63,640 bases of DNA, filler included, from Licmophora abbreviata (GCA_900291995.1; 31 parts of 31 records of this genome joined end to end with filler, not necessarily neighbours in it), one strand, 5' to 3'. Positions 41,510 through 61,430 are shown, counted from the whole stretch's first letter. Translations and numbers: made by a program. Notes: generated by a model from the sequence alone, not told the origin.

Positions 41510-41824
41510 TTAGGCTTGGCCGGCGCGGTGACTAGTGCGGCGACGTTGCCTCTTGCCATTAACGTTCGCTCCCGGAGCGCTTGTCGTAAGTGATGTACCA
41601 CCAACTTTCGCTTCTCCATCCTCACCACCTTTGTTCCCCTTTTCGTCGAATCCGGTGAAGGCGTCTTCGATGGGTTGGTATTCCAACTCCCGACGAATGT
41701 GCCCTCGGCGCATACGTGTCGCATAAGTTGAGCTCCTATCGATTGGGCCTCGAACCTGACCATGGGACAAGGCGACTGCTACAAAAGCAAGCAACGAACA
41801 GAAGATGGCTTTCGTGGTTTTCAT
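41510..41824 (-). CDS. Small secreted protein, QVRG...TYATRM...RxL family
   Basis: MKTTKAIFCSLLAFVAVALSHG|QVRGPIDRSSTYATRMRRGHIRREL|... Confidence 0.75.
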   Translation of the reverse strand: MKTTKAIFCSLLAFVAVALSHGQVRGPIDRSSTYATRMRRGHIRRELEYQPIEDAFTGFDEKGNKGGEDGEAKVGGTSLTTSAPGANVNGKRQRRRTSHRAGQA

Positions 41825-43030: not shown

Positions 43031-43585
43031 TTACTTTGACTTTTTCGATGCCTTCGATGCCTTCGATGCCTTGGACTCCTTGGACGCCTTTGATGCTTTG
43101 GAAGCCTTGGAAGCCTTGGAAGCCTTGGATGACTTGGACTCCTTGGATGCCTTCGATGCTTTGGAAGCCTTCGATGCCTTGGACGCCTTGGATGCCTTTG
43201 ACTCTTTGGACGCCTTGGAAGCCTTGGAAGCCTTGGACGCCTTTGAAGCCTTTGATGCCTTCGAGGCCTTCGAAGACTTCGGTGCTTTCGTTGCTTTTGG
43301 TGCTTTCGTTGCCTTCGGTGCCTTCGTTGCTTTCGGCGCTTTCGATGCTTTCGGTGCCTTTGTGCCCTTCTTTCCTGACGGTGACAGGGTGTAAGTGGCA
43401 ACATAGGCTTCCATGTCTAACGCAGAGGTGTCATCAGAGGAGTCCAGCAGTTTACGATCTCGATCATGGCGCATGCGAGTGGCATATGTGGAGCCTCCGC
43501 CCTCACCTCCACGAACCTGAGCATGTGACCTAGTGGCGGCAACAATGCCAAGCAGGACGATAGAGAAAGCGGTAGAGACCTTCAT
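43031..43585 (-). CDS. Silaffin-like secreted Lys/Ser/Ala-rich protein
   Basis: Signal peptide, QVRG...TYATRM...RKL pro-peptide, short acidic segment, then over 100 aa of K-x-x repeats (KAP/KAT/KAS/KES/KSS) forming continuous KxxK motifs. Confidence 0.85.
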   Translation of the reverse strand: MKVSTAFSIVLLGIVAATRSHAQVRGGEGGGSTYATRMRHDRDRKLLDSSDDTSALDMEAYVATYTLSPSGKKGTKAPKASKAPKATKAPKATKAPKATKAPKSSKASKASKASKASKASKASKASKESKASKASKASKASKASKASKESKSSKASKASKASKASKASKESKASKASKASKKSK

Positions 43586-44134
43586 GTTGAGGTGCCGATC
43601 AAATCAAATTGTGAGAATTGTGTTGCCTTTCTCCAATATTGTGTCGTGTGGAAGAGGTGGGGTGAATTTTTAATTTTTGTCTGGCTGAAGCGTTGGGTCT
43701 TGATATATTTTTCGCGGGACAGCAATGAACGTGTCTGAAGGATGATATAGGCCGCGGAGTCAGATCGGTTAAACGGGAAAAGTATCTTTCCGGTACTCAG
43801 CAGCTAACCAAATAACGATTCAGCAGAAGTCAGTGCCGGAGGTCTGAGAATAAATCCCACCATTTTTTCGCTTCTACCCCAAAAAATCGACGATTCGTAC
43901 GCCCAACCGTTATCAGGTCAAAACACTGACGCGACTCGACTCACGCTGCAACGTAAGTTACAGGCCCACCAGTTAATAAAAATAATAACTCATTGATTAG
44001 TCAGCACGTAATACGCTTATCAGGTATGTGTACTNNNNNNNNNNNNNNNNNNNNNNNNNNNNNNNNNNNNNNNNNNNNTTAATTAATTAANNNNNNNNNN
44101 NNNNNNNNNNNNNNNNNNNNNNNNNNNNNNNNNN

Positions 44135-44695
44135 CAAACGAGAGAAACAATCACCGTCTTCCGGCGTACAGAATTTCGTTCGGTTGTAGACGAAAGTCCG
44201 GATGTACTTCTTGTCCTGTATGACTTTGTTAATGAAAGCCGAAAGCACCCTATCCTTGGGATCCCGCACAAAGATGGCCCTGGTGTATTCTGGAGAGTTC
44301 ATCATCTCTGTCGCTCTGCTAATATTGTATTCATTGAGATATCTGATGCCATTCGTCTTCGGGTTGTGTGGCATGCTCGAATGCCAATCCTCGTACCCCA
44401 TCATGCGTCGAAATAACTTCTTCCAATTTGTTGTGCCCACTTTCGGCACTTCCACAAAAATGAGCTTGTGGCTTTCCACGACCATTGGAGCGGTCCAAAC
44501 GTCTTGATAGACAAAGTCGGATGAATCGACAGAAGTAGTAGTAGTCTGGCGATGATGATCATTCCGATCGTTTACTGCACGTAGACTCAGTAGACTCGCA
44601 ATTGTGTTTGCCAACAGCGCTGCCAGGAGAAGAAACAACGTGATCAAGAACGACCAAGTGCCATGCACCTTCTTGGGTCGGAATGAACGAAGCAT
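44135..44695 (-). CDS. Golgi-type carbohydrate sulfotransferase (Sulfotransfer_2), 3' partial
   Basis: N-terminal TM; LIFVEVPKVGTTNWK (5'-PSB) and IFVRDPKDRVLSAF (3'-PB). Confidence 0.9.
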
Positions 44696-45258
44696 GTCTC
44701 AACTGACTCGACTCGGGGCGACGACGATGCGATCGTCGCAGAAATCAAAGTGAAAGAAGGAAGAGGGGACAGCACAAGTGTTGCCGAGTTCAGGTCAGTT
44801 GACGAAAATCCAACGCATACCAGATTCACAGAGCTCGCCAAAAACAAGAGCGAGGTCGGAAAGATGCCCTCGCATTTGGCGCGACCAACACTTACATATT
44901 TAAGTATTAATTCGCAGAAAGAGAAAAGAGCCTGTCGGACTTGATCGAATCATTGGACTCAGTTCTCGGGATATTTCGATATTTCATATTTCTCTTTTCG
45001 AAAAAATGGAGGGACTCGATTGATTCCATTCATTCATTCGCGCCTGCACCCGACGGTCATGGCTTGAAGCACAGGACGATCATAGATATCTGGTATCGGC
45101 ATCGCGAACGCAGCCAATTCCTACGTTATGGTATCATACCTACCGTACAGACTAGCCACGCGTGTGGTTCCTAAGCAGTTCTGCGTCAAATTTATTCACC
45201 AGTAGGAGTCAGTTGCGTCGCAACATTCTCATGTTGCTTATCTATAACTCTCTTCTGT

Positions 45259-45857
45259 CTATTGTTGTCGTATTAATTGTAGCTGATCTCTTGGAACGCC
45301 CTTTCGCTCCGACACTGGGCCTTTCTGAAACTCAACGTCGTAGACAACCATCTGGTAGGAGCTCGCGGTCACGACGCCCGGCCGATAGTCAACGTCCCAG
45401 AGTGCCAGAACTCGCTGCCCTGGCATAAGTTGGGAGAGCGTTTCCTCTACTACCAATATTTCATTTCGGGCGACTTCGAGTAACACATTGCCGTCATCGT
45501 CGTCTTCACATTGAATATCGAACGCACTTTCTGTTTGATGCGGGTGTTGGACGATGCCTTTCACAGTAGCTTGACAAAAGTCGTCTTGACTTTCTCGGTA
45601 CACGACAACAGCCTGGCCGATGGATAGTTCTGAGAACGTGTGTTTGTCTGAAATCTCATGACGCCGCAATGGCCATTCGGCGCCGCTCTCTTCCTCGTCA
45701 TCATCGGAAGTATCAAACACAACATAGAACCGATCCACTTGGTACATACGCGTGACGGTTGCCGGATGGGACACTATGGCACCATCCATAGCGTATGCGT
45801 AGACTCGTTCTCCAACCGAAAGATTGGCGTCGTTTGCTGTCGGCGCTGTTCGTATTC
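45259..45857 (-). CDS. Three tandem Tudor/Agenet-like repeats; probably the C-terminus of the adjacent aminopropyltransferase fusion
   Basis: Frame open to the linker; LSVGERVYA..HPATVT..FYVVFD / LSIGQAVVV..QATVKG..FDIQCED / LMPGQRVLALW..YRPGVVT..YDVEF..KGVPRDQL. Confidence 0.7.
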
Positions 45858-45957
45858 NNNNNNNNNNNNNNNNNNNNNNNNNNNNNNNNNNNNNNNNNNN
45901 NTTAATTAATTAANNNNNNNNNNNNNNNNNNNNNNNNNNNNNNNNNNNNNNNNNNNN

Positions 45958-48323
45958 TCTCATCCACTTGTACTCGTAGGGAAAGGTCACGTTGAAAGTT
46001 CACCACGCGCCCAATTCCTCGAGGCTGTTCATCGACGAGCGCCACTGTCAGGGTGTCTTGGGGGAACTGCGATGTAAGGATATCCAGAAAAAAGCCGGGT
46101 AGCTCAAAGCTCTCATTGTCATTGGCAAACCAATTCACGTCGATGTGATTCCTACCATCCCACAAGACGAGGAAGCTCCCTCCGGACCATGGGGTTACAA
46201 TCACGCACCCGTCACTGCCCGCGTCGGTGCTTATCTTTGGTGATGCGTCAGCAAGTTCTTCTGAATCCATGAGAGAGAGGGCGACCTCCACGAAGCTCAT
46301 CATGGAATCCAGTGAAAGATGCACCGATGCGGCTACCTCGAGCTGCATCAACACATGATAGGCCAGTGGCTGTTGAGAAAACCATTGACTCAGGGCAGGT
46401 TGCTGATCGTAGTGCTCGGGACCGAAAAAGTACTCCCATTCCCAGTCGGGGTCCTCCACGAACTGCCCGCCTTTGATCATTCGAACTTCAGAATCGATTT
46501 TCGTCGTTTCGTCTTGTTCTATGCGTGCCACTAGCTCAAGCAGTCGACCGACGAAGTTGTCATCTACAGATGTAGACACACCAAGCTCCATGCGGCCTCC
46601 TTCTGTAGTGTTGAAGAGGACCTCTGTTCGGAAATTCGGGTCGTTCACAATGATGGTGCTTCTGAATCTCTCCATCAAGTTCCGACGCCATGATTCGTCT
46701 TCTTCTTCTTCTTCGTCGTCGTCGTCCTCATGTATTAACGAGAGGACAAGCAAATCATCCTCCAACAGACCGACCTGATCCGATAGAATTATCTCATACG
46801 CGATTCGACCGATGGCGTAGGATGCACTCGAGTCAATGACCAGCGCACGGATCTTTTGCTTGTTTGATGCGTGAAAGGCATCCAGACTGTCACCAAGCTC
46901 TAGCTCGCAAGCCGCCATGCGCTCTGTGAAGCCTTGAGAATACTCGTTTGAGTCCGTCGAGAGCCCCGAACACGTCCAAAGGGGCAACACTTTCGCATCT
47001 CCCTTGGCCTTCTTCAACGCGTTTACTCCCTGGCAGGGCTTCCCCTTCTCGCCACAAAGCACGACTGCCACGTACGGATCGGTACCCCCAATCAACTTGT
47101 TGGCGCACTCTTTGAGGATCAAAGTTTCGACGGTCTGCTTCTTCGTGTTAGTAGTAGATGCTCGAGATCCCTCTGTGGGCTCCTCTGCAGTGCAAGGATC
47201 CGTCGCACGGGGGCCTCGCTTCATTTCATCTTCCTTCCATGTCTCTGTCCCGTACATGCCCCCCGCTACGATGCGGTAGGATGACGTGAACCTCCCGATG
47301 GCCCGACCACCGATGGCTTCCACAATAGCGTTCCGCGCCGCATCGTGCTTCTCAAAGGCACTCCAAAGATGAATATCGATTGCGGCGTACCTGTGCTCAG
47401 GCCACGTTCGAACATTGACGTATCCTTCCTGTAGAATCACTGTCACCGTAGGTTTCTCGTGGACCGTTGTCTCCATTCGACTCAATGTGTGGAAGCCTTC
47501 CTCCGCCAAAGTTGTCTCGACGGTCAATAGAAGCGCAGCGGAGTCCTTCAGATTGCCCTTGATGTCCTCTGCCTCGACAATCATCAGGACACCAGGGCTG
47601 CTCGTCTGGTTCTTTGCAGACTCTTCCTCCTGTGCGAACGCGTCATCGGCTCTACAGTGCCGTTGTGCAGTCGTATTGTGGCGATAGTCGTGAACGTACT
47701 CGTATGGATCTTCAATTGACGATAACGGCTGGATGTAGAGAGTGTCAAGCTCATGATCCCTCATCTGATCGTTGAGAAAGTCAATACGGTTGCTTCCGAG
47801 ATTCATGCATTGGGAACACACGACAGGAACGCTGGGATAGTTGATTTGAAGACTGCGGTATAGAAAACAAGAGGACAAGACTTCTGTGTCAGACTGTGTT
47901 ATCAATCAGACACGAGCTGCAACGGAACACTTTCGCACGTACCTGTACTGAAAAAGTTCGCTGAACTTGTCCATGTAGAGTTCGTTCTTAACAAAGATGC
48001 CGTCAGGCTTGAGCAAAAGCGACAGAGCCTGCAGAATGTCCAATTCGCTCGTCACGCTGAGCGACATTACCGTCTCCGACAGATCCACGAGAACCATATC
48101 AAATGATCCAAAGTAGTCAGCGGGGAGCATCAAGAGACTCTTGGCCGCATCGCCGTACCACCACTCAACTTTCTCGTTGTCAAAGTGCGGCTGCGTACCC
48201 ATGTGTAGGAAGCTGTACCGCGTAATGGTTTGGTCAAGCTCAAGACCAACAGCGAGCTCGATGGAAGGGTACTTGAGTATCTCATGGAGAAGCATGGAGT
48301 CTCCTCCACCGACCCACAGCACG
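45958..48323 (-). CDS. Aminopropyltransferase (spermidine/spermine synthase-like) + two degenerate AdoMetDC-like folds (module A); intron 47853-47942; partial at both ends
   Basis: VLWVGGGDSMLLHE, LELD, YGDA, FDMVLVD; ILQEGYVNVRTWPEHRYAAIDIHLW resembles SpeD ESHxSIHTWPE..YAAVD; ends DEQPRGIGRVVNF. Confidence 0.88.
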
Positions 48324-48947: not shown

Positions 48948-49154
48948 ATGTCCATCACAAAGACCTTTTTTGTCTTTCTCTTGATTGCCGTCCTCGTTAG
49001 CCTGTCGGATGCACAGGTGCGTGGCAGTAGTAGTGGTGGAGAAACCTATGCCACACGCATGCAAAAAAGGGGAAGCAGCTCTTCGACGCGCCGACAGCTC
49101 AAGTCTACGAAAGCTCCAAAGGCTAGTAGGCGGCGTGCGCGAAAGGAATATTGA
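48948..49154 (+). CDS. Small secreted protein, QVRG...TYATRM...RxL family, with short KxxK mature peptide
   Basis: MSITKTFFVFLLIAVLVSLSDA|QVRGSSSGGETYATRMQKRGSSSSTRRQL|KSTKAPKASRRRARKEY. Confidence 0.8.
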   Translation: MSITKTFFVFLLIAVLVSLSDAQVRGSSSGGETYATRMQKRGSSSSTRRQLKSTKAPKASRRRARKEY

Positions 49155-49992
49155 TGACTCTGGCTTTCATTCACAAGGGGAGTGACGACCACAGACCATC
49201 GTAAGATTGAACATGCGACTGTTCGGGGATTGAAGAAGGGACTGTTCGGGGTGTTTGTGGGAGAGAGTGTCGTTGCGAAACGAGAAGGCAAGTTGAGCCG
49301 TGGGTGGGTGGACTTTGGGGATCGTCCATTCGCAGTGGCTGCACCGCAACAAGAATGCTCGACGTTCTGTTTTTGTATGTCCAAGAGGGTCATTCATGAT
49401 GCTCGTACACTATAGATCGGAAGCTATTAGTAGTAGCATGGGAAAATTCTTATAGCTTGGAGACTCGTCATTTCTACGACAGTAGTTCTCTTGCCGTAGA
49501 GATTCTTACCTGGTACTACGTGACACGAAAGAGACATGGGCGCTCGACAGTGGGTCGACATGATGGGACGATNNNNNNNNNNNNNNNNNNNNNNNNNNNN
49601 NNNNNNNNNNNNNNNNTTAATTAATTAANNNNNNNNNNNNNNNNNNNNNNNNNNNNNNNNNNNNNNNNNNNNACGGATGTTTCCCATCGCGACGTCCGTC
49701 CGCCGCCCAACGTTTGCCATCGCCGAAATATTTCAACGATTTTTGACCATGGCACAGTTTACTCTTTCTCTCTGTCGGTTGTCGCTTCACCCCTCGCTAG
49801 CGCGTCTTCTTTAGTTTACAAGAGACACATTGCTCACCAGAGAGCTAGAGACAAGAAAGACTCGTTCTGAAGAAAACCTCTAACTGGTACTCGAAAGAGT
49901 TATATATCCGGGGCCTCTCTATTTTTTTACTCCGAAGTACGCGGCGGCAGCCACTACAGCCACCGGGTCGACCGTTTGCTGCTCGCCTGTAC

Positions 49993-51251
49993 ATGATGGT
50001 GATCGCCTTGGCAGCAGCGACGGCTTGTCAATTACTCGTTGGCACCGGCTTCATAATAGCCTCGCTTTCCGCCGTCGAAATGGAACTTTTCCCCCCCTAC
50101 CAACCTGAGCATGTGGTGCAAGGTCCCCGAATACTGACACAGTCCGATGATGAAGAAGAAGATGGCACTGATGTTGATGCTGTTGATACCTTTAGCTTTT
50201 CGGCTTGTCTGTTGATCAAAGATGACAACCGAATTCTCCCAGAATGGCTTGCATATCATTACACCACTCTTCCGCTCCGGCATCTTGTCGTGGCGGTCGA
50301 TCCCTTTAGTCTCACCGACCCAAGTAAGATCATTCTGGACGAGTGGAGAAACAACGATGACCTGGGTATGAGAATAGACGTGTGGCACGATGAAGACTAC
50401 ATGATCTATGATTCCTCGACCATTCCAAAACCCTTTCCAAAAGATTCAGGAAGTTACAAGATTGCAGCTCATCGAGAACGACAGCCGAGCTTTTACAAGG
50501 CTTGTCTTGATCATCTTCGAAGAGAGAATAGGACTTGGACGGTTCTGATAGATTCAGATGAGTATCTTTTGCTGAACACCTTCAATTTGCCGGGGCTTCG
50601 TGAAGAGCGGTGCGAAAGGAAAGCGGAGGGACAGGCGAAAAAGGCGTGTTTCGATCGGCTGGCGATGCTGTCTGCCTCCTCGAGCAATGCTACTATGATG
50701 ACGGTCGCAGAGTTTATAGAGCGGGACATTCGAAACAACGAAACTCTTTTCAAGAATACCAGCGCTCTTCCCTGCATTTTGGTCCCACGGGTGTTCTTTG
50801 GCGGGCAGGAGACTTCTCGAGAAGAGATTTCCTCGTACGGTACGTTGCGGTTGTATGTGACCTAGGCATGCGTGGTGCAGAGACAAAGCGCACTACTGTT
50901 GTTTGTATCACTGGTCTCTCCCATACTAACGACTCTACCACTTTCTTTGATTCCAACTCTATCAATAAAGTCCCGGCTGGTTTCAATCTTTCCTTGTTTG
51001 ATACGTTGCGCTTTGGCAAGTATCTCAGATACTCTCTGGGAAGTGAGTGGCCCGGCAAGAGCGTCGTCGATGCATCGCGATTCCACGAGAAATCCATTGA
51101 CAACGCGCACCAAGCCATGAGAGATGATCTGTGTGTGGGCGACGTCTTTCCCGACCCTTTCACTTCCGTCTTTCGGGTACAGCACTACTTGGGCAGTCTC
51201 GAAGACTTTCTAACACGACCGGGTGATTCCAGGCGGACGAGCGAGGTACGT
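49993..51251 (+). CDS. GT-A fold glycosyltransferase (GT92/GT2-like diatom family); intron 50840-50970; 3' partial
   Basis: FSACLLIKDDNRILPEWLAYHY, RQ..FYKACL, WTVLIDSDEY (DxD), CILVPRVFFG, FDTLRF, GKSVVD, RVQHYLGS. Confidence 0.8.
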
Positions 51252-51351: not shown

Positions 51352-54214
51352 TCTGTCAGACGTCACGGCTGGTGTAGAGAACATTACAGCATCTTTGTCA
51401 GATGTACTAATGGTTAAGGGAGGGCAGATGCCTGAAGAGCGTGACTGGGCGTGGGAGTATTTCTTTGGTCCAAAGGACTATGATCACAAGCATGCTGCAG
51501 ATCAGTGGCTTTCTCAAGAGCCGTTGGCATACCAGGTTGTGATGCAACTGAAACAGGCCGACGGAGGTAATCTTTCCTTATCGTTGGGTGCGATCAAGAA
51601 AGCGGTCGAGATGGCACTACGTCAGATGAAATCGGATGATATTGCAACGGCAGAGCTGAAAATAAATAGCGACGTGGGAAGTGGATGTACGATTGTCGCA
51701 GTTTGGTCCGGAGGGAGCTTTGTTGTGCTGTGGGACGGCAGGGGTCGGGTAGATATCAACTGGTTTAGCTATGAGGAGCACTTTGACTTACCCGGTTACT
51801 TTCTGGACTTCTTTATGTCTCAGTTTCCTGAGGACGCGATGAAGATTGTCTTCATGGACGAACAGCCCAGGGGAACTGGGCGTGTTGTCAATTTTTTGCG
51901 TGACCTTGAGCCGCTTGTCAATCCGCGCTGGATGGAAGTTGAAGAATATGATGTACTGGCAACGAACAAGACTTCCAGCAATAGAGTCATACAGAATCAG
52001 AATCATCTGGGGAAGCGAGTTGCTCTTCTTCACATCGGTCCCTTTCCGGTATGTCCTATCTCTGTTCTCTCAATGAATGCACCGCTCCGTATCATTTGTC
52101 CAGGCCTCACAACTTAATCTTGTCTGTTTGCGGTAGGCGGGCTCGACCTCGATCCAGGCTGACCTCTGTCGACACGTACGCGACCTGGAGAACTTCAACT
52201 GGACAGTTCCAAACTGCGACTCGTTGTCCCCGTGCGTTCCTGCGTACGATTTTGTCAGTGAGATCGACACCTTTTCTATTGGGTGCTTTGCCGATGCGCT
52301 TGAGAGAGTCCCCGAGGAGAATAGCGTCCTTCTCTCTTCGGAGCTGTTCGTACAATTGATGGAGAAACCTGGTCGGCTCGAATTTCTACGGGGCCTTCTT
52401 AGCGGCTTTCAAGTCAAGATTGTCTACATACATCGGAATAAGGCATCACAGGTTCTCCCGCATTGCGTCCAGGAATCTCAAGGCTCAATCGGGCAAAAAT
52501 TTGAAAGATGTCTCGAAACACTTCGATCGAGCCGCAATCCGGACTTTCACCCGGAAATGCTACAGGCTTATGCAGACGTTTTTGGGGATGAGAATGTGTA
52601 TCTCATGTCACTTGAAAGGCTTCGAGAGTCTGGTATCACGCCATTTCGGGCGTTGATTGAAATCGAATCTTCCCTTCAAGCATTTGTCACGAAGGAGAAG
52701 AGAAATGTCAACCCAAACGTTGATGACGCAGCAGACCAAATGAAAAACTCGTTCGAGAGTTTTTTAGCCTTGAAGTTGCAAGACGAAGGATCTGCGCCGT
52801 TGAGTGACTTCGATTCAGTCTGCATGAATGATCGTCTGGTGGCGTTTGCTGAGTCTGCGTCTCTTCCTAACATTTGTGTGGAAACGGGTGAGAGGTTCAC
52901 CTCCTGGATCCAATCGGACTACGAATGGTGTAAAGACACGAAATACAACTTTCACTACTTCACGTGTGAAGACACGCTCCGAGAAGAAAATCGATCGTGT
53001 GTTGTCAATGTCGGAGCAATGATGGGAGAGGAAGATACCCGTGTTCGTGTTCTGGCGGAGGTTGACAGCATTGTTGAAAACTGTAAGAGGAGCGAAACAA
53101 ACTCTCTAAGCCGAGAGAAGAAAGTCGGGTCCACCCCTGAAGAATTGATTGCTCAGGACTCATATTTTCTTTCCCGGGCTCATGTCATCTATCGATATCC
53201 AAAAGCCCGTTTCGAGAGGCAGAATGCGATTTCCATCGTGGGCGTCTTGAATTACGATGCTAATCGACGACAAATGATCCGAGAAACTTGGGGCCACAAT
53301 CGAACAAATGTGTTCTTCATTGTGGCCGGAAACTGGACCGAAAAGCTGGAGACAGAGTTTTTGTCAACTCAAGATTTGGTCTGGATCGATCGTCCTGAGA
53401 CCTATCGTGGCTTGACGTACAAGACACAAGGTTTTATGACGGCTGTAGTTAAGCACGTCAGTCCGAGCAGTTACAAATATTTGTTCAAGACCGACGACGA
53501 CTCTTATGTGAACTTGGACAAACTGGAGAATCTTCTTGAAGATAGCAGATATCGAGATGCAAACTATATTGGTGGCCTATGCCACTCGAAGTCTAGAGTC
53601 AAGCGGGATCCCACACACAAGAACTACGAGTCAAGAAAGGTGCAACCCGATGACTTCTACAAACCTTATGCAGATGGTGTTGGCTATGCCGTCTCTAACT
53701 GGGCCGCTTCCTGCATGGTGGGTAACATACCTGGAATCAGGTACTTCGCGAATGAGGATGTCGCCACTGGGGACCTAGCTTCAAGTTGCAGAGTTTCGTG
53801 TGTCGCAAGCCTAGACATCCTCGGTGTCGACACGGGATCAAGTGTATCCATTGAAAGGCAGTCCGACAACGTCATCCTTCGGCCCCACTTGCAGTATGAG
53901 AAAGACATGCGAGAGCAACATGCCCGAACCTGTTCGAATATGACATCTTCTGTATCGTGCATCCGCGCCCTTCCCATCCAAGTGGTACCTCATTGTGATC
54001 GCGGCAAAAGAGGCTCAACATGGTGCTACGATGATCTCAGTGACGGCAAGGACCAGCGCTACTACGACCCATACGATTCGTCTGAGTGCGAGACGGAAGA
54101 TTCATTGTCATTCGATGATATGGAGGAGATCGAACCACTGGCATCTCACCACCACGATATAACTTTCTCGAAGGACCCTACGAACGACAATGTATGCTAT
54201 GCGCTGGACGATGA
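51352..54214 (+). CDS. Giant fusion, part 1: AdoMetDC-like tail (module B) - P-loop sulfotransferase-like domain - GT31 galactosyltransferase - start of aminopropyltransferase; intron 52049-52136
   Basis: DEQPRGTGRVVNF, then LHIGPFP|AGSTSIQ, then RRQMIRETWG, LTYKT, YLFKTDDDSYVN, YADGVGY, NEDVATG, then SHHHDITFSKDPTNDNVCYALDD, all in one spliced frame. Confidence 0.85.
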
Positions 54215-54314: not shown

Positions 54315-56376
54315 TGTTGAAATGTGTGACAGCTTTCGACCTCAGTACAGCGAAATGATGGTACATTATCCTGCTCGCTACCTTGAGAACGTCAAGCGGG
54401 TCTTGTGGGTCGGCAAAGGTGACTCCATCCTGTTGCAGGAGATTCTCAAGTACCCGTCTATTGAACTGGTCGTGGGGCTAGGCATCGACCAAACACTCAC
54501 TCGGTACACGTTCAAGCACATGGGCGCCCAGCCGCATTTCGACAACGAGAAGGTTGAGTGGTGGTACGGCTATGCATTCGCTACTGTGGCTATGCTTCCT
54601 GCGAACTACTCAGGCACGTTCGATATGGTCCTGGTGGAGGCACCCGAGGCAATCATGTCGCAGCCTGTCGTGAAAGGTGTCGAGATGCTGCAGGCGCTGT
54701 CGGCGCTTCTCAAGCCGAAGGGTATCCTGGTGACGAACGAGCTCGTCATGCACAGGTTCAGTCAAGTATTCCAGTACAGGTATGTTCGATGTGAAGTTTT
54801 GCGTGATGGATGGACTGGTATTTATCTGAGTGTATTTTTAGTGTGTACTGTTTCGAGTGACTTTATACTGACAAGGTTTGTGCCCCCTCTCGCTCGAACG
54901 CAGTCTCCAGGTCAACTACCACAAAGTTCCGATGGTATGTTCACAGCACCTGGTTCTCGGGAGCAACGGAGTAGACTTCCTCAACGATGAGATGCGGGAT
55001 CACAAACTTGACACCCTCTACCTCAAGCCTTTGTCATCTATCGATGACCCCTACGAGCTCGTCCATGACTATCGGCACAATGCGACCGCTCAATGGCCCT
55101 GTCAAGGTCAAGAGCAGGCGCTGGTGGAGCCTACCAAGCAGTCCGTCAGTCGTGGTGTCTTGATGATTGTCGAGGTGGAAGATGCGAGCGGCGATCTGGA
55201 CGACCCCAAGTCAGTTATCACTGCGGTCGAGGCGAGCCTGAAGAGCGAAGGGTTCAGCGTCGTGAGTGGAGTAGAGTCGACGGCCGATAACAGGCCCGCA
55301 GTGACCATCATTCTGCGTGAAGGATACGTCGCAGTGCGGACGTGGCCAGAACACAAGTACGCAGCGATCGACATTCATCTCTGGAGTGCGTTTGACCAGC
55401 ACGGGGCAGCGCGGAAAGCTGTTGTGAAAGCCGTCGGTGGTCGGGTCGACAAATCGACATCGTCGTACCGCATCGTAGCTGGCGGAATGTACGGGACGAC
55501 GACGTGGAAGGACGACGAAAAGAAGCGGGGTCCACAGGCCACCGACGCTTGCGTCGAGACGTCCGCGGTGGTGCCTCTTGCCAAGTCTATGGGGAAAGGT
55601 ACTAGGGAGATAATTGTCCAAGAGGGTGTGGTGCGGCTGGTCGATGAGATCGACTTTGTCGTGGCGGTACTCTGCGGAGCGAAAGGGTCACCCTGTAAAG
55701 ATGTAGACACGCTGAAGAAAGCCAAGGGCGTGGGCCGAGTTGTACCTCTTTGGACTTGTCCTGACCTGGTGGGCAGGAATGGTACTGGCGATACAGTTTC
55801 CACCGAGCGTATGGTGGCATGCGAGCGAGATCTGGCGTCGAGCTTGACCGACTCGATCTGGGTCGGCGATAAGATTCGTGCGCTGGTCGTCGACTCGAGC
55901 GCATCGTACGAGATCGGCCGAGTCGCGTATGAGATGTTAAAAACGAACAAGAATCGCCTGCTGAAGGACAATCTGCTTGTCATGTCTTTGATGCGTGACG
56001 AGGAGGGGGAGTCATGGCGTCGGAACTTGGTGGAGAAATTCCGAACGGAAGTCATTGTGGACGACCCGAACTTCAGGACCGAGGTGGTCTTCAGTAGTAC
56101 AGAGGGCAGCCTGGAGCTGGGCGTGTGCACGTCTGTCGGTGACCATTTCGTTCGTCAACTAACAGAAGTCTCATCGATTGTCCAAGAAAAGACCTCGCTG
56201 GCTTCGGAAGTACGGATGGTTAAGGGCGGGCAGCTGTCCGAAGAGCCTGACTGGATGTGGGAATATTTCTTTGGTCCAAAGGACTATGATCACAAGCATG
56301 CTACAGATCAGTGGCTTTCTCAGGAGCCGTTGGCATACCAGGTTGTAACTCAGCTTAAGTTGGTGAAACGAGCGTC
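54315..56376 (+). CDS. Giant fusion, part 2: degenerate aminopropyltransferase + AdoMetDC-like domain (module C); intron 54780-54903
   Basis: MCDSFRPQYSEMMVHYPARYL..KRVLWVGKGDS; ILREGYVAVRTWPEHKYAAIDIHLW; colinear with module A including intron position. Confidence 0.88.
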
Positions 56377-56476
56377 NNNNNNNNNNNNNNNNNNNNNNNN
56401 NNNNNNNNNNNNNNNNNNNNTTAATTAATTAANNNNNNNNNNNNNNNNNNNNNNNNNNNNNNNNNNNNNNNNNNNN

Positions 56477-58162
56477 CTTTGTATCTCAATTTCCCGAGGA
56501 GGAGTTGAACGTTGTCTTGGTGGACGAACAGCCAAGGGGAACTGGCCGTGTTATCAATTTCTCGCGTGACCTTGACCCAAGCGACACTCCTCATTGGACA
56601 AGCCATGATTATCAAACTCCTGCTGGTACAACGTCCATTTTTGAGTCTGCGAAGAGCCTCACATCATCAGAGGTGACGCGTCAGTTGGAGTACGTTCACA
56701 TTACGAAAGTGGGTGGAACCGCGCTCGAGGATGCTGCACTAGCCCAGGACGGCGTCGTTTGGGGCCGCCAGCATTATCCAGAAAGCGGCTGGGCGCTGCC
56801 ACCCTTGTCGATTCCGCCATCTATTCATGTCGGATACTTGGGTGAACCATGGCACACGCCTCAACATTGGATCACGCCTCACCCGTTGGAGGGCGCAGAC
56901 ACGTTCGCTGTTGTCCGTAACCCGTACGCTCGGTATGTCTCTGAGTATTTCTGCGAGTGGTACCCCTGGAACAGTCCTGAAAATGTGAGAATCGACAAAG
57001 CGGACATTATGAATACGTGGATACAAAAGTTCATCCGTCGCAACCGGGACGTAGAACAGCATGGTCATATGCTTCCTCAGCACTACTATATCTACGATGA
57101 GAAGACGGGGGAGCAGCAAGTGGATCATGTCCTAAAATACGAGGATGATTTGCCCGATAACTTCTCCGTGTTTGTGGCCAAGTATGGCCTCAACATCACT
57201 TTGGAACCCAAGAAGCCCTCCAAGCGAAAGACAGGTATAAAGGATCTATCGGAGGCAACAATTCGACTCATCAATGACTACGCAGCGAAAGACTTTGAAT
57301 TGCTGCAGTATCCCATGGTAAAGTCATCCGTCGAATTCACCGACGCCGATGGCTCCGTCGCTGCGAGTTCGGAGAAAGTTTCAACTGACAAAGAAGAAAA
57401 CCCAACTACGCCACAAGATTTGCTCTTGACTGTCCCTTTCTACATTTACGACGACTTTGGTTTACCCGACGACGTCACCCTCGACGGCAAGCGGTTCGTC
57501 ATGGAGGACATTGATCCAGAGAAGCCGCTTCATTCCGTGTCCCCGCTGCTGAGCAAACACGCGGACGATGTCTTGTTCGCCAGAGCTGCAATGAAACATC
57601 CCATGAGGACGCTCGATCCCAGCAAGGCCGAGCTGTTCTTAATCCCTACGCCCTTTAATATGATCATGGATCGGATGAAATTCGGGGGCAAACTGTGCGT
57701 CAAGAAGATTTGCAATATGGACCTGGTTCGACACGTGGACCAGGTCCTGTCGTCCACAAGTTGGTTTCAAAGGCACGGTGGAAAAGACCATGTTGCGGTG
57801 TTGAGTCACTGGGGTTGGCACGATGACTGGTTTTGGAACAAGTTCATTGGTGATTGGTGGCCTAAACACATTCACCGGTGTAATGCCATTGGCTTTGAGG
57901 ACAAGTTCCGCCATCGCGCCAAGGACCGCATTGTGTTTCCATCCTACTACGTCGGCAGACCATGTCCACCACCGACTAGTAGTGGAGACAATAAGAAGAG
58001 ACCTCACGATTTTGCCATGATCACGACACTGGAACGGAGAGACCAAGATGTAAAATTCCAAGACCGCATGAATATTTGCAAGTGGATCCAGAAGGAGACG
58101 ACACATTCTATGCCTTCGTGTGGGGAAGGAAGTCAGTGCCCGGCGCTCTCCCAAGCCAAGTA
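56477..58162 (+). CDS. Giant fusion, part 3: module C tail - Sulfotransfer_2 domain - exostosin/GT47-like domain; 3' partial
   Basis: DEQPRGTGRVINF; LEYVHITKVGGTALE and FAVVRNPYARYVSEY; PFYIYDD, HPMRTLDPSKAELFLIP, WFQRHGGKDHV in one ORF. Confidence 0.85.
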
Positions 58163-59562: not shown

Positions 59563-60381
59563 TCAGCTGAGAAGTTTCTTCCGTGCCACCTCTGCTTGCT
59601 TGGTAGTGTGCCGGTTAATGGTCAATTCTCCGTTCGTGTGCATTCGCTCTAATACCAGATGCTCACGAAAGATTGAGTGGCCGGGGCTTTTGGGGTTGAA
59701 CTGAAAGTTTGCATCACCAATGCCCTTGACCCTTGAACAATCCTTTGGCTTTGGCATATTGAAGTGATATGGATAGCACGGGTCTTCCTCCCTTCCGAAG
59801 AGAGTCACAGACTTGCAATTCTCAACAGCCCACATTACAGCCATCATTCCAGAACTGCAATACTGACCCTTACGTAGAGACACGAACTTTGTACAAGCCA
59901 ACCATTTCGACAACGGTAAAAGCGTCCATTTGGAAGATGTCTTGGCGCTCCATTTCTTGTATTGCGCTGACGATTCTTTGGCCGTAGTCTGGTATGTGAT
60001 ACCGGTCAGTTTAGGATTGTTTTGCTTAGCGAACCAGACGCCTGGTGAGGAGTAGTTGCTCTGCTGAAATGCTCCAAAGTGGACAAGCCAATGTGTGGTT
60101 TTGCTCCCCACGTACTCTTCAAAGCCATCCGGAACGGCGCCATTGATTCTGAGAACTTTATCAAACGAGTCGATGAGTGGGCCATCGTGGAACTTGAGTA
60201 AGCTCCCGGAGCTGAAAACGACAGCGCAGGACCCTGGAGGCTTCTTCGCGGGGAGGGTTTTCTTGCTATCGGCGGTGATTGGTACCTTCTTGGAAACGGT
60301 TTTAGGGTCCTTGAAAGGGTTCCATTTCTTGGGATGTTTGTCCTTGCTCTTTCTGAGCGGGTTTCGTATCGGAAGAGTCAA
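59563..60381 (-). CDS. GT29 sialyltransferase-like protein (5' partial)
   Basis: Sialylmotif [11 protein letters not shown]...[13 protein letters not shown]...VGSKTT, motif [22 protein letters not shown], motif III-like YHF, VS-like HSIFREH. Confidence 0.88.
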
Positions 60382-60986: not shown

Positions 60987-61430
60987 ATGAGCACCACTAC
61001 GAATCTCCAAGTACCCTCCAATGAAGAGTGCTTGGCACTCTTCGATCGTTTCGACTACAACGGCAATGGAATCCTGTCTCTTGCCGAACTCGATAAGACC
61101 GTCGTGGAACTTTGGCCCAACTTCAACCACAAGCCGGCCATTATGCGAGCCTACAAGAGTGCCGACAAGAACGACGATGGCTTTATTCGGCGCAATGAAT
61201 TTCGACGATTCTTGAAGTTTCTCGAGTACTACAACAATCTATGGGAAGACTTTAGTCTGGCTGACAATGATGGGGACAGACGTCTGACGAAGGAAGAATT
61301 TACCAATATTGCTGCTCCTAAACTTGACCTTGCTGATGCGGATGCAGTTTGGAAGGAAATGGACTCGAATCAAGGAGGTTTCGTTCTCTTTGATGAGTTC
61401 TGCGCCTGGATGTCGAAAAGAGAGGCGTAG
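60987..61430 (+). CDS. Four-EF-hand Ca2+-binding protein (calflagin/FCaBP-like)
   Basis: DYNGNGILSLAE, DKNDDGFIRRNE, DNDGDRRLTKEE, DSNQGGFVLFDEF. Confidence 0.88.
   Translation: MSTTTNLQVPSNEECLALFDRFDYNGNGILSLAELDKTVVELWPNFNHKPAIMRAYKSADKNDDGFIRRNEFRRFLKFLEYYNNLWEDFSLADNDGDRRLTKEEFTNIAAPKLDLADADAVWKEMDSNQGGFVLFDEFCAWMSKREA

Follow-up and report, generated by a model that had tools for sequence, protein, structure and literature searches.

Gene A, as it is called here, is an open reading frame (ORF) of 184 codons on the minus strand of a 63,640-nt stretch from Licmophora abbreviata (GCA_900291995.1), and the evidence tips slightly towards its product being a silaffin-like polycationic biosilica protein that is processed at an RXL site. 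To judge from its sequence, gene A is a real, selected and secreted low-complexity protein, in which a predicted signal peptide, a short leader and an acidic stretch precede a long array with a lysine at every third residue. The whole stretch, hereafter the window, consists of 31 parts of 31 records joined with filler; the parts are not necessarily neighbours in the genome, and the distances given below are in window coordinates. The segments of gene A are as follows.

43031..43585, minus strand: gene A, complete ORF of 184 residues (protein P0001) including the stop codon; from translation, with an in-frame stop upstream
43520..43585, minus strand: residues 1-22, signal-peptide-like segment MKVSTAFSIVLLGIVAATRSHA, predicted cleavage after S-H-A; from its hydrophobic core, the alignment of paralogues and a modelled helix
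43448..43519, minus strand: residues 23-46, leader (putative pro-peptide) of 24 residues, QVRG-x6-TYATRM, ending in R44-K45-L46(-L47), an RXL or dibasic-x-Leu site; conserved in three paralogues
43373..43447, minus strand: residues 47-71, acidic stretch of 25 residues containing Ser, Thr and Tyr, net charge -5; from composition
43034..43369, minus strand: residues 73-184, unbroken K-x-x array with 38 Lys, net charge about +37; from the repeat count and a codon-position test

The ORF ends in TAA, with TAG immediately after it, and 7 codons before its ATG there is a stop in the same frame. An earlier note on this DNA had proposed a signal peptide, a pro-peptide ending in RKL and an acidic spacer in front of the array, and all three segments were recovered in the present analysis. 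The signal peptides of gene A and of its two paralogues (genes B and C, see below) were judged heuristically, by hydrophobicity and the -3/-1 rule. In gene A, residues 6-17 have a Kyte-Doolittle mean of 2.75, Lys2 is placed in the n-region, and small residues occupy positions -3 and -1 of the predicted cleavage site (S-H-A, then Q). The AlphaFold2 (AF2) model of P0001 has a helix at residues 5-21, with low confidence (predicted local distance difference test, pLDDT, 53). R44-K45-L46 is the only R.L in the protein. From residue 66 to residue 184 the AF2 model contains no predicted structure (coil), again with low confidence (pLDDT 53), and this would be compatible with an extended, flexible chain in the role of a silica scaffold. 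There is no Trp in the 184 residues, and there are three Tyr.

The lysines of the array stand in one register at residues 73, 76 and so on up to 184, that is, 38 Lys over 112 residues, as expected from the earlier claim of a lysine at every third residue for more than 100 residues. When residues 23-184 were shuffled 10,000 times, the longest period-3 lysine run was 8, against 38 in gene A. The 37 triplets are KAS (22), KAP (5), KAT (3), KES (3), KSS (2), KGT (1) and KKS (1). They are graded along the chain, with KAP and KAT in units 2-10 and KAS in units 11-36, so that the described gradient from KAP/KAT to KAS, with occasional KES and KSS, holds as well. Tandem Repeats Finder assigned a 9-nt period with 35.2 copies and 79% matches to positions 43044-43360, and no higher-order period was clear in the array. 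Besides the 38 Lys there are 30 Ser, which are almost the sole other functional group among the side chains, and K..K in its general form is counted 37 times, for the most part KASK, KAPK or KATK.

An array of this kind could also be a non-functional ORF, with its frame opened by the 9-nt tandem repeat after a chance ATG and a hydrophobic stretch. All six frames are indeed open across the repeat, so that openness of the ORF proves nothing, and P0001 is absent from the protein collections searched. The distribution of differences among the units is against this explanation. With the caveat that repeat units are not independent observations, the units depart 68 times from their consensus, AAG GCA TCG, and 51 of these departures are at third codon positions in the minus-strand frame (binomial p = 2.5e-12, with one third expected). 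Across all 37 units, the Lys codon is invariant at positions 1 and 2 and the Ser codon at position 2. Synonymous and non-synonymous changes stand at 42:17 in the frame of gene A and at 23:40 in the best other frame (F-D-A on the opposite strand), so that the synonymous excess is confined to the former. Between-unit identity is 0.42 at third positions versus 0.86 at positions 1 and 2.

There is also no sign of recent slippage. The likeness of KAS units at third positions is 0.55 for adjacent units and 0.48 for random pairs, a difference that is not significant (permutation p = 0.13), and 9 distinct 9-mers encode the 22 KAS units. Codon usage in the array is AAG 29 and AAA 10 for Lys, GCA 17, GCT 7, GCG 5 and GCC 1 for Ala, and TCC 15, TCG 8, TCA 6 and TCT 1 for Ser. 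All 30 Ser codons are therefore TCN; in eight further ORFs of the window, about 27% of Ser codons are AGY. The exclusive use of TCN fits units of common descent which later drifted only synonymously. The third-position bias argues that selection at the protein level has kept the array and that no young microsatellite is involved, which bears out the earlier reading of the synonymous variation. The repeat in the DNA looks like a by-product of constraint on the protein and not like a microsatellite of recent expansion.

Of 11 sequence sets, none of them on record as RNA, nine contain part of the stretch and none as much as half of its words. The segment 43361-44034, with the repeat excluded, was compared with four of the 11 (X1, X2, X6 and X9), all of which are contigs. 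One contig of X2 is identical over 43397-43731; the RNA origin of X2 is only a guess, and neither transcription nor its strand can be read from this contig. In the contig set X6, no match to 43361-44034 was found.

Two known types of lysine-rich or imported protein were considered and rejected for gene A. Linker histones are nuclear proteins with a globular domain, without a signal peptide, and with tails rich in Lys, Ala and Pro. A linker-histone-like tail was dropped because P0001 has a signal-peptide-like N-terminus and no Pfam domain above threshold; the only Pfam match was a sub-threshold low-complexity one to PF05403 (29 bits, with a cut-off of 45.8). Diatom plastid pre-proteins of the ASAFAP type carry an aromatic residue or Leu at position +1 of the signal-peptide cleavage site. 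Gln is at the predicted +1 in gene A and in both paralogues, and plastid targeting was dropped as well.

The N-terminal region of gene A is not unique in the window. A tblastn search of the window with residues 1-72 retrieved two further genes that begin in the same way.

41510..41824, minus strand: gene B, 104-residue paralogue that shares the signal peptide and leader and has RREL aligned with the RXL site; residues 1-48 are 48% identical, E 3e-9
48948..49151, plus strand: gene C, 67-residue paralogue that also shares the signal peptide and leader; its RRQL runs straight into KSTKAPKAS, and a basic tail follows; residues 1-39 are 49% identical

Residues -3 to -1 followed by Gln are SHA|Q in gene A and SHG|Q and SDA|Q in the paralogues. 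Twelve positions are invariant across the three proteins (Q23, V24, R25, G26, T33, Y34, A35, T36, R37, M38, R44 and L47), and the dibasic-x-Leu site takes the form RKLL in gene A, RREL in gene B and RRQL in gene C. The six codons of TYATRM differ among the three genes at third positions only. Since the leader and the site are common to three paralogues, they support a conserved pre-pro module at the N-terminus and a putatively functional RXL-type site. The conservation of the N-terminal 48 residues in two paralogues, together with the third-position-only changes in the TYATRM codons, is again against a non-functional ORF, which in view of these data and of the codon pattern of the array is scarcely credible. 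A fourth leader-like match at 61345-61404 (E 0.063) lies in an ORF without a signal peptide and was dropped as chance.

Downstream of the cleavage site the three proteins are unrelated. Gene A continues with the acidic stretch and the array; gene B is acidic and Gly-rich, with a basic end; and gene C has KSTKAPKAS and its basic tail. Conserved N-termini that are 48-49% identical and are followed by unrelated mature parts are also the plan of prepropeptide families such as those of animal antimicrobial peptides, and genes A-C might accordingly encode secreted cationic defence or signalling peptides, with hypervariable mature parts freed at the dibasic-x-Leu site. Gene C, for example, would free a strongly basic peptide of 17 residues. 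However, the mature part of gene B is largely acidic or Gly-rich, the 112-residue K-A-S polymer of gene A is non-amphipathic, is modelled as coil and is unlike known membrane-active peptides, and the enzyme genes nearby (see below) would be left without explanation. A peptide family of this kind is thus quite unlikely.

The reading of gene A as a silaffin-like protein rests in part on comparison with published criteria. In the screen for silaffin-like proteins of Scheffel et al. (2011), as quoted in PMC3478156, an ER (endoplasmic reticulum) signal peptide is combined with at least 18% Ser and at least 10% Lys per 100 residues. In gene A the best 100-residue window starts at residue 85 and contains 35 Lys and 29 Ser, and the signal peptide is present by the heuristic test. 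The pentalysine-cluster pattern K..K..K.{1,2}K..K (Poulsen 2013, in the form given in the preprint 10.1101/2021.09.18.460806) is stated there to occur in 29% of soluble silica proteins versus 1.5% of background proteomes, and a 13-mer of this type together with a signal peptide is described as sufficient for silica targeting. Gene A has 34 overlapping matches to this pattern, and in a six-frame translation of the 63.6-kb window matches are found in the gene A ORF only. The preprint also lists PKA.K, SKA.K and KS.KA as more than 20-fold and KSSKA as 77-fold enriched in silica proteomes; the counts in P0001 are 4, 22, 2 and 2, respectively. RXL is presented in the relevant part of PMC4557024 as the motif at which the precursors of silaffins, cingulins, frustulins and silacidins are generally processed (RRIL and RRNL in Sil1p), and KXXK as the likely recognition element for lysine-modifying enzymes. 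A canonical RXL site, of which at least one is demanded in the screen of Brembu et al. (2017; PMC5501833, screen description), is present at R44-K45-L46. As far as sequence can tell, gene A is therefore within the operational definition of a silaffin-like protein.

The likeness to characterized silica proteins has clear bounds. According to excerpted descriptions, the silaffins of Cylindrotheca fusiformis (Sil1p) and Thalassiosira pseudonana (tpSil1-4) have, like gene A, an ER signal peptide, a pro-region removed at RXL, a Lys/Ser-rich low-complexity mature part, KxxK spacing and the pentalysine-cluster pattern. Gene A has no sequence homology to them, although silaffins share none among themselves either, as stated in the preprint (10.1101/2021.09.18.460806). 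It also differs from what is described of them in its strict spacing of 3 for 38 Lys, in having Ala instead of Ser/Gly at the first x, and in the absence of internal RXL sites and of PT repeats. The cingulins CinY and CinW of T. pseudonana carry K(X)nK runs of up to 40 residues, which may be compared with the array, as reported in the cingulin sections of PMC9650480. In CinY1-3 an element named 'UM' directly after the signal peptide is reported there to be needed for frustule targeting; the leader of genes A-C parallels it, and the two are likened by description only. The lysine-enriched regions of cingulins are described in the same source as having a variable spacing of 2-4 residues with S/G fillers and as alternating with Trp/Tyr-rich domains, so that a strict period of 3 with Ala at the first x is unusual. 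With no Trp and three Tyr, gene A lacks the alternation of KXXK regions with Trp- and/or Tyr-rich regions by which cingulins are defined in the text of PMC4557024. The SKA.K, PKA.K and KSSKA motifs are common to gene A and the soluble proteins of three silica-extracted Thalassiosirales proteomes covered by the preprint (10.1101/2021.09.18.460806), whereas gene A has no detectable homologue among the proteins searched.

Proteins with similar arrays are found elsewhere. A whole-protein search with P0001 gave 13 matches at E<=0.001 among 8000 scored candidates; they are K-rich repeats, and the local alignments cover 16-79% of the query (79% for P0003). An exhaustive search of 1.84 billion representatives gave 126 matches, 3 of them at E<=1e-10 and none at E<=1e-30. 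The longest period-3 lysine runs in these 126 are 32, 28, 28 and 25. The run of 38 in gene A is thus the longest and most regular in these searches, yet not of a different order. By a crude test, 34 of the 126 begin with a signal-peptide-like segment, and in 14 of the 126 an RXL lies at most 3 residues before a K..K..K run, compared with 0.89 expected by shuffling. One of the look-alikes, P0050 (383 residues), has a signal peptide followed by six repeats, in each of which a cationic peptide of K-x-x type is paired with an acidic one of Ser/Asp/Glu, both bounded by RXL; judged by this layout, it is a polyprotein in the style of silaffins and silacidins, with a Sil1p-like plan. A signal peptide, an RXL and a K array are combined in the small proteins L011, P0153 and P0136. 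Neither the ESM Atlas, which held no usable match for P0001 or for the neighbouring enzyme, nor a string search of the literature for the repeat and for the leader motif, in which no paper was found, added to these relatives.

A metagenome scan with residues 1-90 confirmed at least 18 loci among the 590 pattern matches listed. Among the matches listed, 16 of the 18 loci align only within residues 65-90, and the other two, L010 and L014, within residues 54-90 and 44-90. With residues 1-72 as the tblastn query, nothing at E<=1 was obtained from these 18 loci, and relatives of the aminopropyltransferase (APT), S-adenosylmethionine decarboxylase (AdoMetDC) and sulfotransferase genes described below are lacking in them, their flanks being short. 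Five of the marine metagenome loci among the matches listed (L009, L014, L017, L010 and L004) encode different secreted proteins or enzymes that end in tails of the TKAPKATKAPK type, and several of the proteins with such tails are Cys-rich or have a large N-terminal domain. As an observation in its own right, tails of this type may be a portable tag for anchoring to the wall or to silica in marine protists.

The second line of evidence is the genomic context, in which genes for polyamine, sulfo- and glycosyl-enzymes surround genes A-C.

44135..44698, minus strand: gene of the Sulfotransfer_2 family, next to gene A on its upstream side, with the 3' part in N runs; E 9.5e-17
45262..45789, minus strand: 176-residue ORF between the sulfotransferase gene and fusion gene (i), with weak sub-threshold Tudor/DUF4537-like matches
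45902..48322, minus strand: aminopropyltransferase-AdoMetDC fusion gene (i), its N-terminus in N runs; Spermine_synth E 1.3e-8, AdoMet_dc E 2.6e-7
49849-50862, plus strand: GT2-like gene, from domain matches
52137-54212, plus strand: Galactosyl_T/Fringe-like gene, from domain matches
54316..56377, plus strand: aminopropyltransferase-AdoMetDC fusion gene (ii), paralogue of (i); Spermine_synth E 4.8e-14, AdoMet_dc E 1.2e-6
56478-58160, plus strand: Sulfotransfer_2 and Exostosin-like gene, from domain matches
59566-60381, minus strand: GT29 sialyltransferase-like gene, from domain matches

The two fusion genes lie 2.3 kb and 10.7 kb from gene A, and the sulfo- and glycosyltransferase genes within about 15 kb of it; gene C and fusion gene (i) are divergently transcribed. 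In fusion gene (i), the Spermine_synth ORF (47909-48322) is joined to the AdoMet_dc ORF (45959-47905) by a 90-nt GT..AG intron (47853-47942), and the spliced junction agrees with the consensus of the homologues. The ORF at 45262-45789, parted from fusion gene (i) by an N run, may be the last exon of that gene or a separate gene. The two fusion proteins are 55% identical over 514 columns, and the best database relative of (i) is 42% identical to it. No similarity between the two sulfotransferases of the window was detectable. The window holds 30 pairs of 44-base N runs, with 12 bases between the two runs of each pair. The pairs are spaced by 1-8 kb (mostly 1-3 kb), often at ORF ends, and look more like deliberate masking than like assembly gaps; in fusion gene (i) it is the N-terminus that they conceal, and in the sulfotransferase gene at 44135-44698 the 3' end.

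Diatom aminopropyltransferase-AdoMetDC fusions combine Spermine_synth with bacterial-type AdoMet_dc domains, as described in excerpts, and fusion genes (i) and (ii) do the same; they are neighbours of gene A and not part of its protein. Such fusions (the family of Michael 2011) are put forward in passages of PMC6356823 and PMC12803844 as makers of long-chain polyamines in diatoms and are called uncharacterised there. Among 34 relatives of the fusion family, two are labelled with an organism, and both are diatoms. Five relatives were scanned: P0017, P0019 and P0029 are fused to Spermine_synth, P0029 also to ShK, and P0047 to SET. P0017, P0047 and P0048 have signal-peptide-like N-terminal segments, which fits enzymes that work in the secretory pathway. 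No Pfam match was obtained for the C-terminal 445 residues of fusion gene (i). Their structure, modelled from a 35-sequence alignment with a pLDDT of 76.8, resembles prokaryotic AdoMetDC (probability 1.00, target-normalised template-modelling (TM) score 0.60-0.66) and also the fold of spermidine synthase and class I methyltransferases (TM 0.35-0.44). This region is thus modelled as a further AdoMetDC-like domain and a domain like spermidine synthase or methyltransferase. Both the fusion genes and the sulfotransferase genes fit the polyamination proposed for gene A. In the section of PMC2758714 concerned, Si-responsive genes are described in small clusters in Phaeodactylum, and a literature search found no paper that links a silaffin-like gene physically to enzymes of this kind.

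The same neighbourhood can be read differently. Gene A could encode a secreted polycationic matrix protein outside silica, which would bind sulfated or acidic extracellular polysaccharides in mucilage, an organic casing or adhesive strands, the polyanion being made by the neighbouring sulfo- and glycosyltransferases. The signal peptide and a net charge of about +37 are as expected for such a protein, the neighbours include two Sulfotransfer_2, GT2-like, Galactosyl_T, Exostosin-like and GT29 genes, and the occurrence of KAPKAT-type tails on diverse secreted proteins (L009, L017 and L014, among the matches listed) is what a general anchor to wall or matrix would produce. However, the two fusion genes for polyamine enzymes have no place in this explanation. 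Nor does it account for the enrichment of SKA.K and PKA.K in silica-extracted proteomes given in the preprint (10.1101/2021.09.18.460806) or for the statement, in the preprint and in the corresponding part of PMC9650480, that pentalysine clusters suffice for silica targeting. A matrix role outside silica is for these reasons somewhat unlikely.

Several facts weigh against a biosilica role. In the screen of Brembu et al., as set out in the excerpt of PMC5501833, KXXK with X = S or G is sought with 1-6 residues between motifs. Gene A fails this stricter screen because it has only two K[SG][SG]K, both KSSK, at residues 103 and 151 with 45 residues between them, and the first x is Ala in 30 of the 37 units. 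The earlier note had counted RxL processing and KxxK with Ser as silaffin hallmarks; the RXL site, the KxxK spacing and the richness in Ser stand, and the KXXK motif in its S/G form does not. Pentalysine clusters, moreover, are also assigned to 1.5% of background diatom proteins in the preprint text (10.1101/2021.09.18.460806). The leader motif is in none of 130 look-alikes (the 126 matches plus those of the whole-protein search), and residues 1-72 have no homologue in 5.8 billion protein clusters, where the 9 word-sharing candidates, limited to lengths of 101-322, include none at E<=10; without an N-terminal homologue, no link to a protein experimentally associated with silica is possible. 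The silaffin-like identity proposed in the note is thus backed by the composition screen and the pentalysine pattern, and is backed neither by the strict KXXK screen nor by a homologue in the collections searched. Tails of the K-A-P-K-A-T type also occur on proteins with bacterial-type domains (P0011 and P0013), and since they are attached to such diverse proteins, the array alone is not diagnostic of silica. Finally, up to 32 proteins with APT-domain fusions are reported for one diatom in the part of PMC12803844 on this family, so that their adjacency to gene A could be chance, and the linkage was noticed post hoc.

With these points taken into account, an RXL-processed, silaffin-like biosilica protein is still the reading that we slightly favour, and it would imply the following course of events. 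The protein would be imported co-translationally into the ER, and the signal peptide would be removed after A22. During passage through the ER and Golgi, Lys would be methylated or aminopropylated and Ser phosphorylated, and the leader would be cut at R44-K45-L46(-L47) by a diatom RXL endopeptidase. The mature product, as we infer it, would be a diblock of about 138 residues: its head would be short and acidic, and its tail, 112 residues long, would consist of pentalysine clusters strung together. These clusters may deliver it to the silica deposition vesicle or to forming biosilica, as is the case for the KxxK clusters of silaffins and cingulins. There, the modified chain could serve as a zwitterionic polyamine scaffold, in which the acidic head (-5) and the phosphoserines self-assemble electrostatically with the tail (about +37), so that silica would be templated and the condensation of silicic acid accelerated. 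Cleavage, modification, silica targeting and silica formation are all proposed on this basis.

A wider, speculative extension is that 41.5-58 kb of the window is a eukaryotic 'biosynthetic neighbourhood' with a leader logic. In this case, the leader shared by the three precursors would recruit the adjacent lumenal modifying enzymes, RXL removal would follow modification, and the (K-A-S)n tail would be a near-minimal natural substrate for oligo-propyleneimine chains. Such an arrangement is unlikely, but if true it would reveal which enzymes modify the lysines of silaffins and which make long-chain polyamines, both of them long sought. The enzymes that add polyamine chains to silaffin Lys and those that make diatom long-chain polyamines are described as still uncharacterised in the passages of PMC6356823 and PMC12803844 that treat them. 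The paralogues B and C with their common leader and the fusion-gene neighbours are new in this analysis. If gene A is unrelated to silica, it becomes one more orphan low-complexity secreted protein. If it is related, its natural (KAS)n polymer offers a clean model for how Lys spacing and Ser phosphorylation control silica precipitation. Gene A is a very simple candidate substrate, with 38 Lys in register, located a few kb from two candidate enzymes, and with it the question of enzyme and substrate in the modification of silaffin lysines becomes testable.

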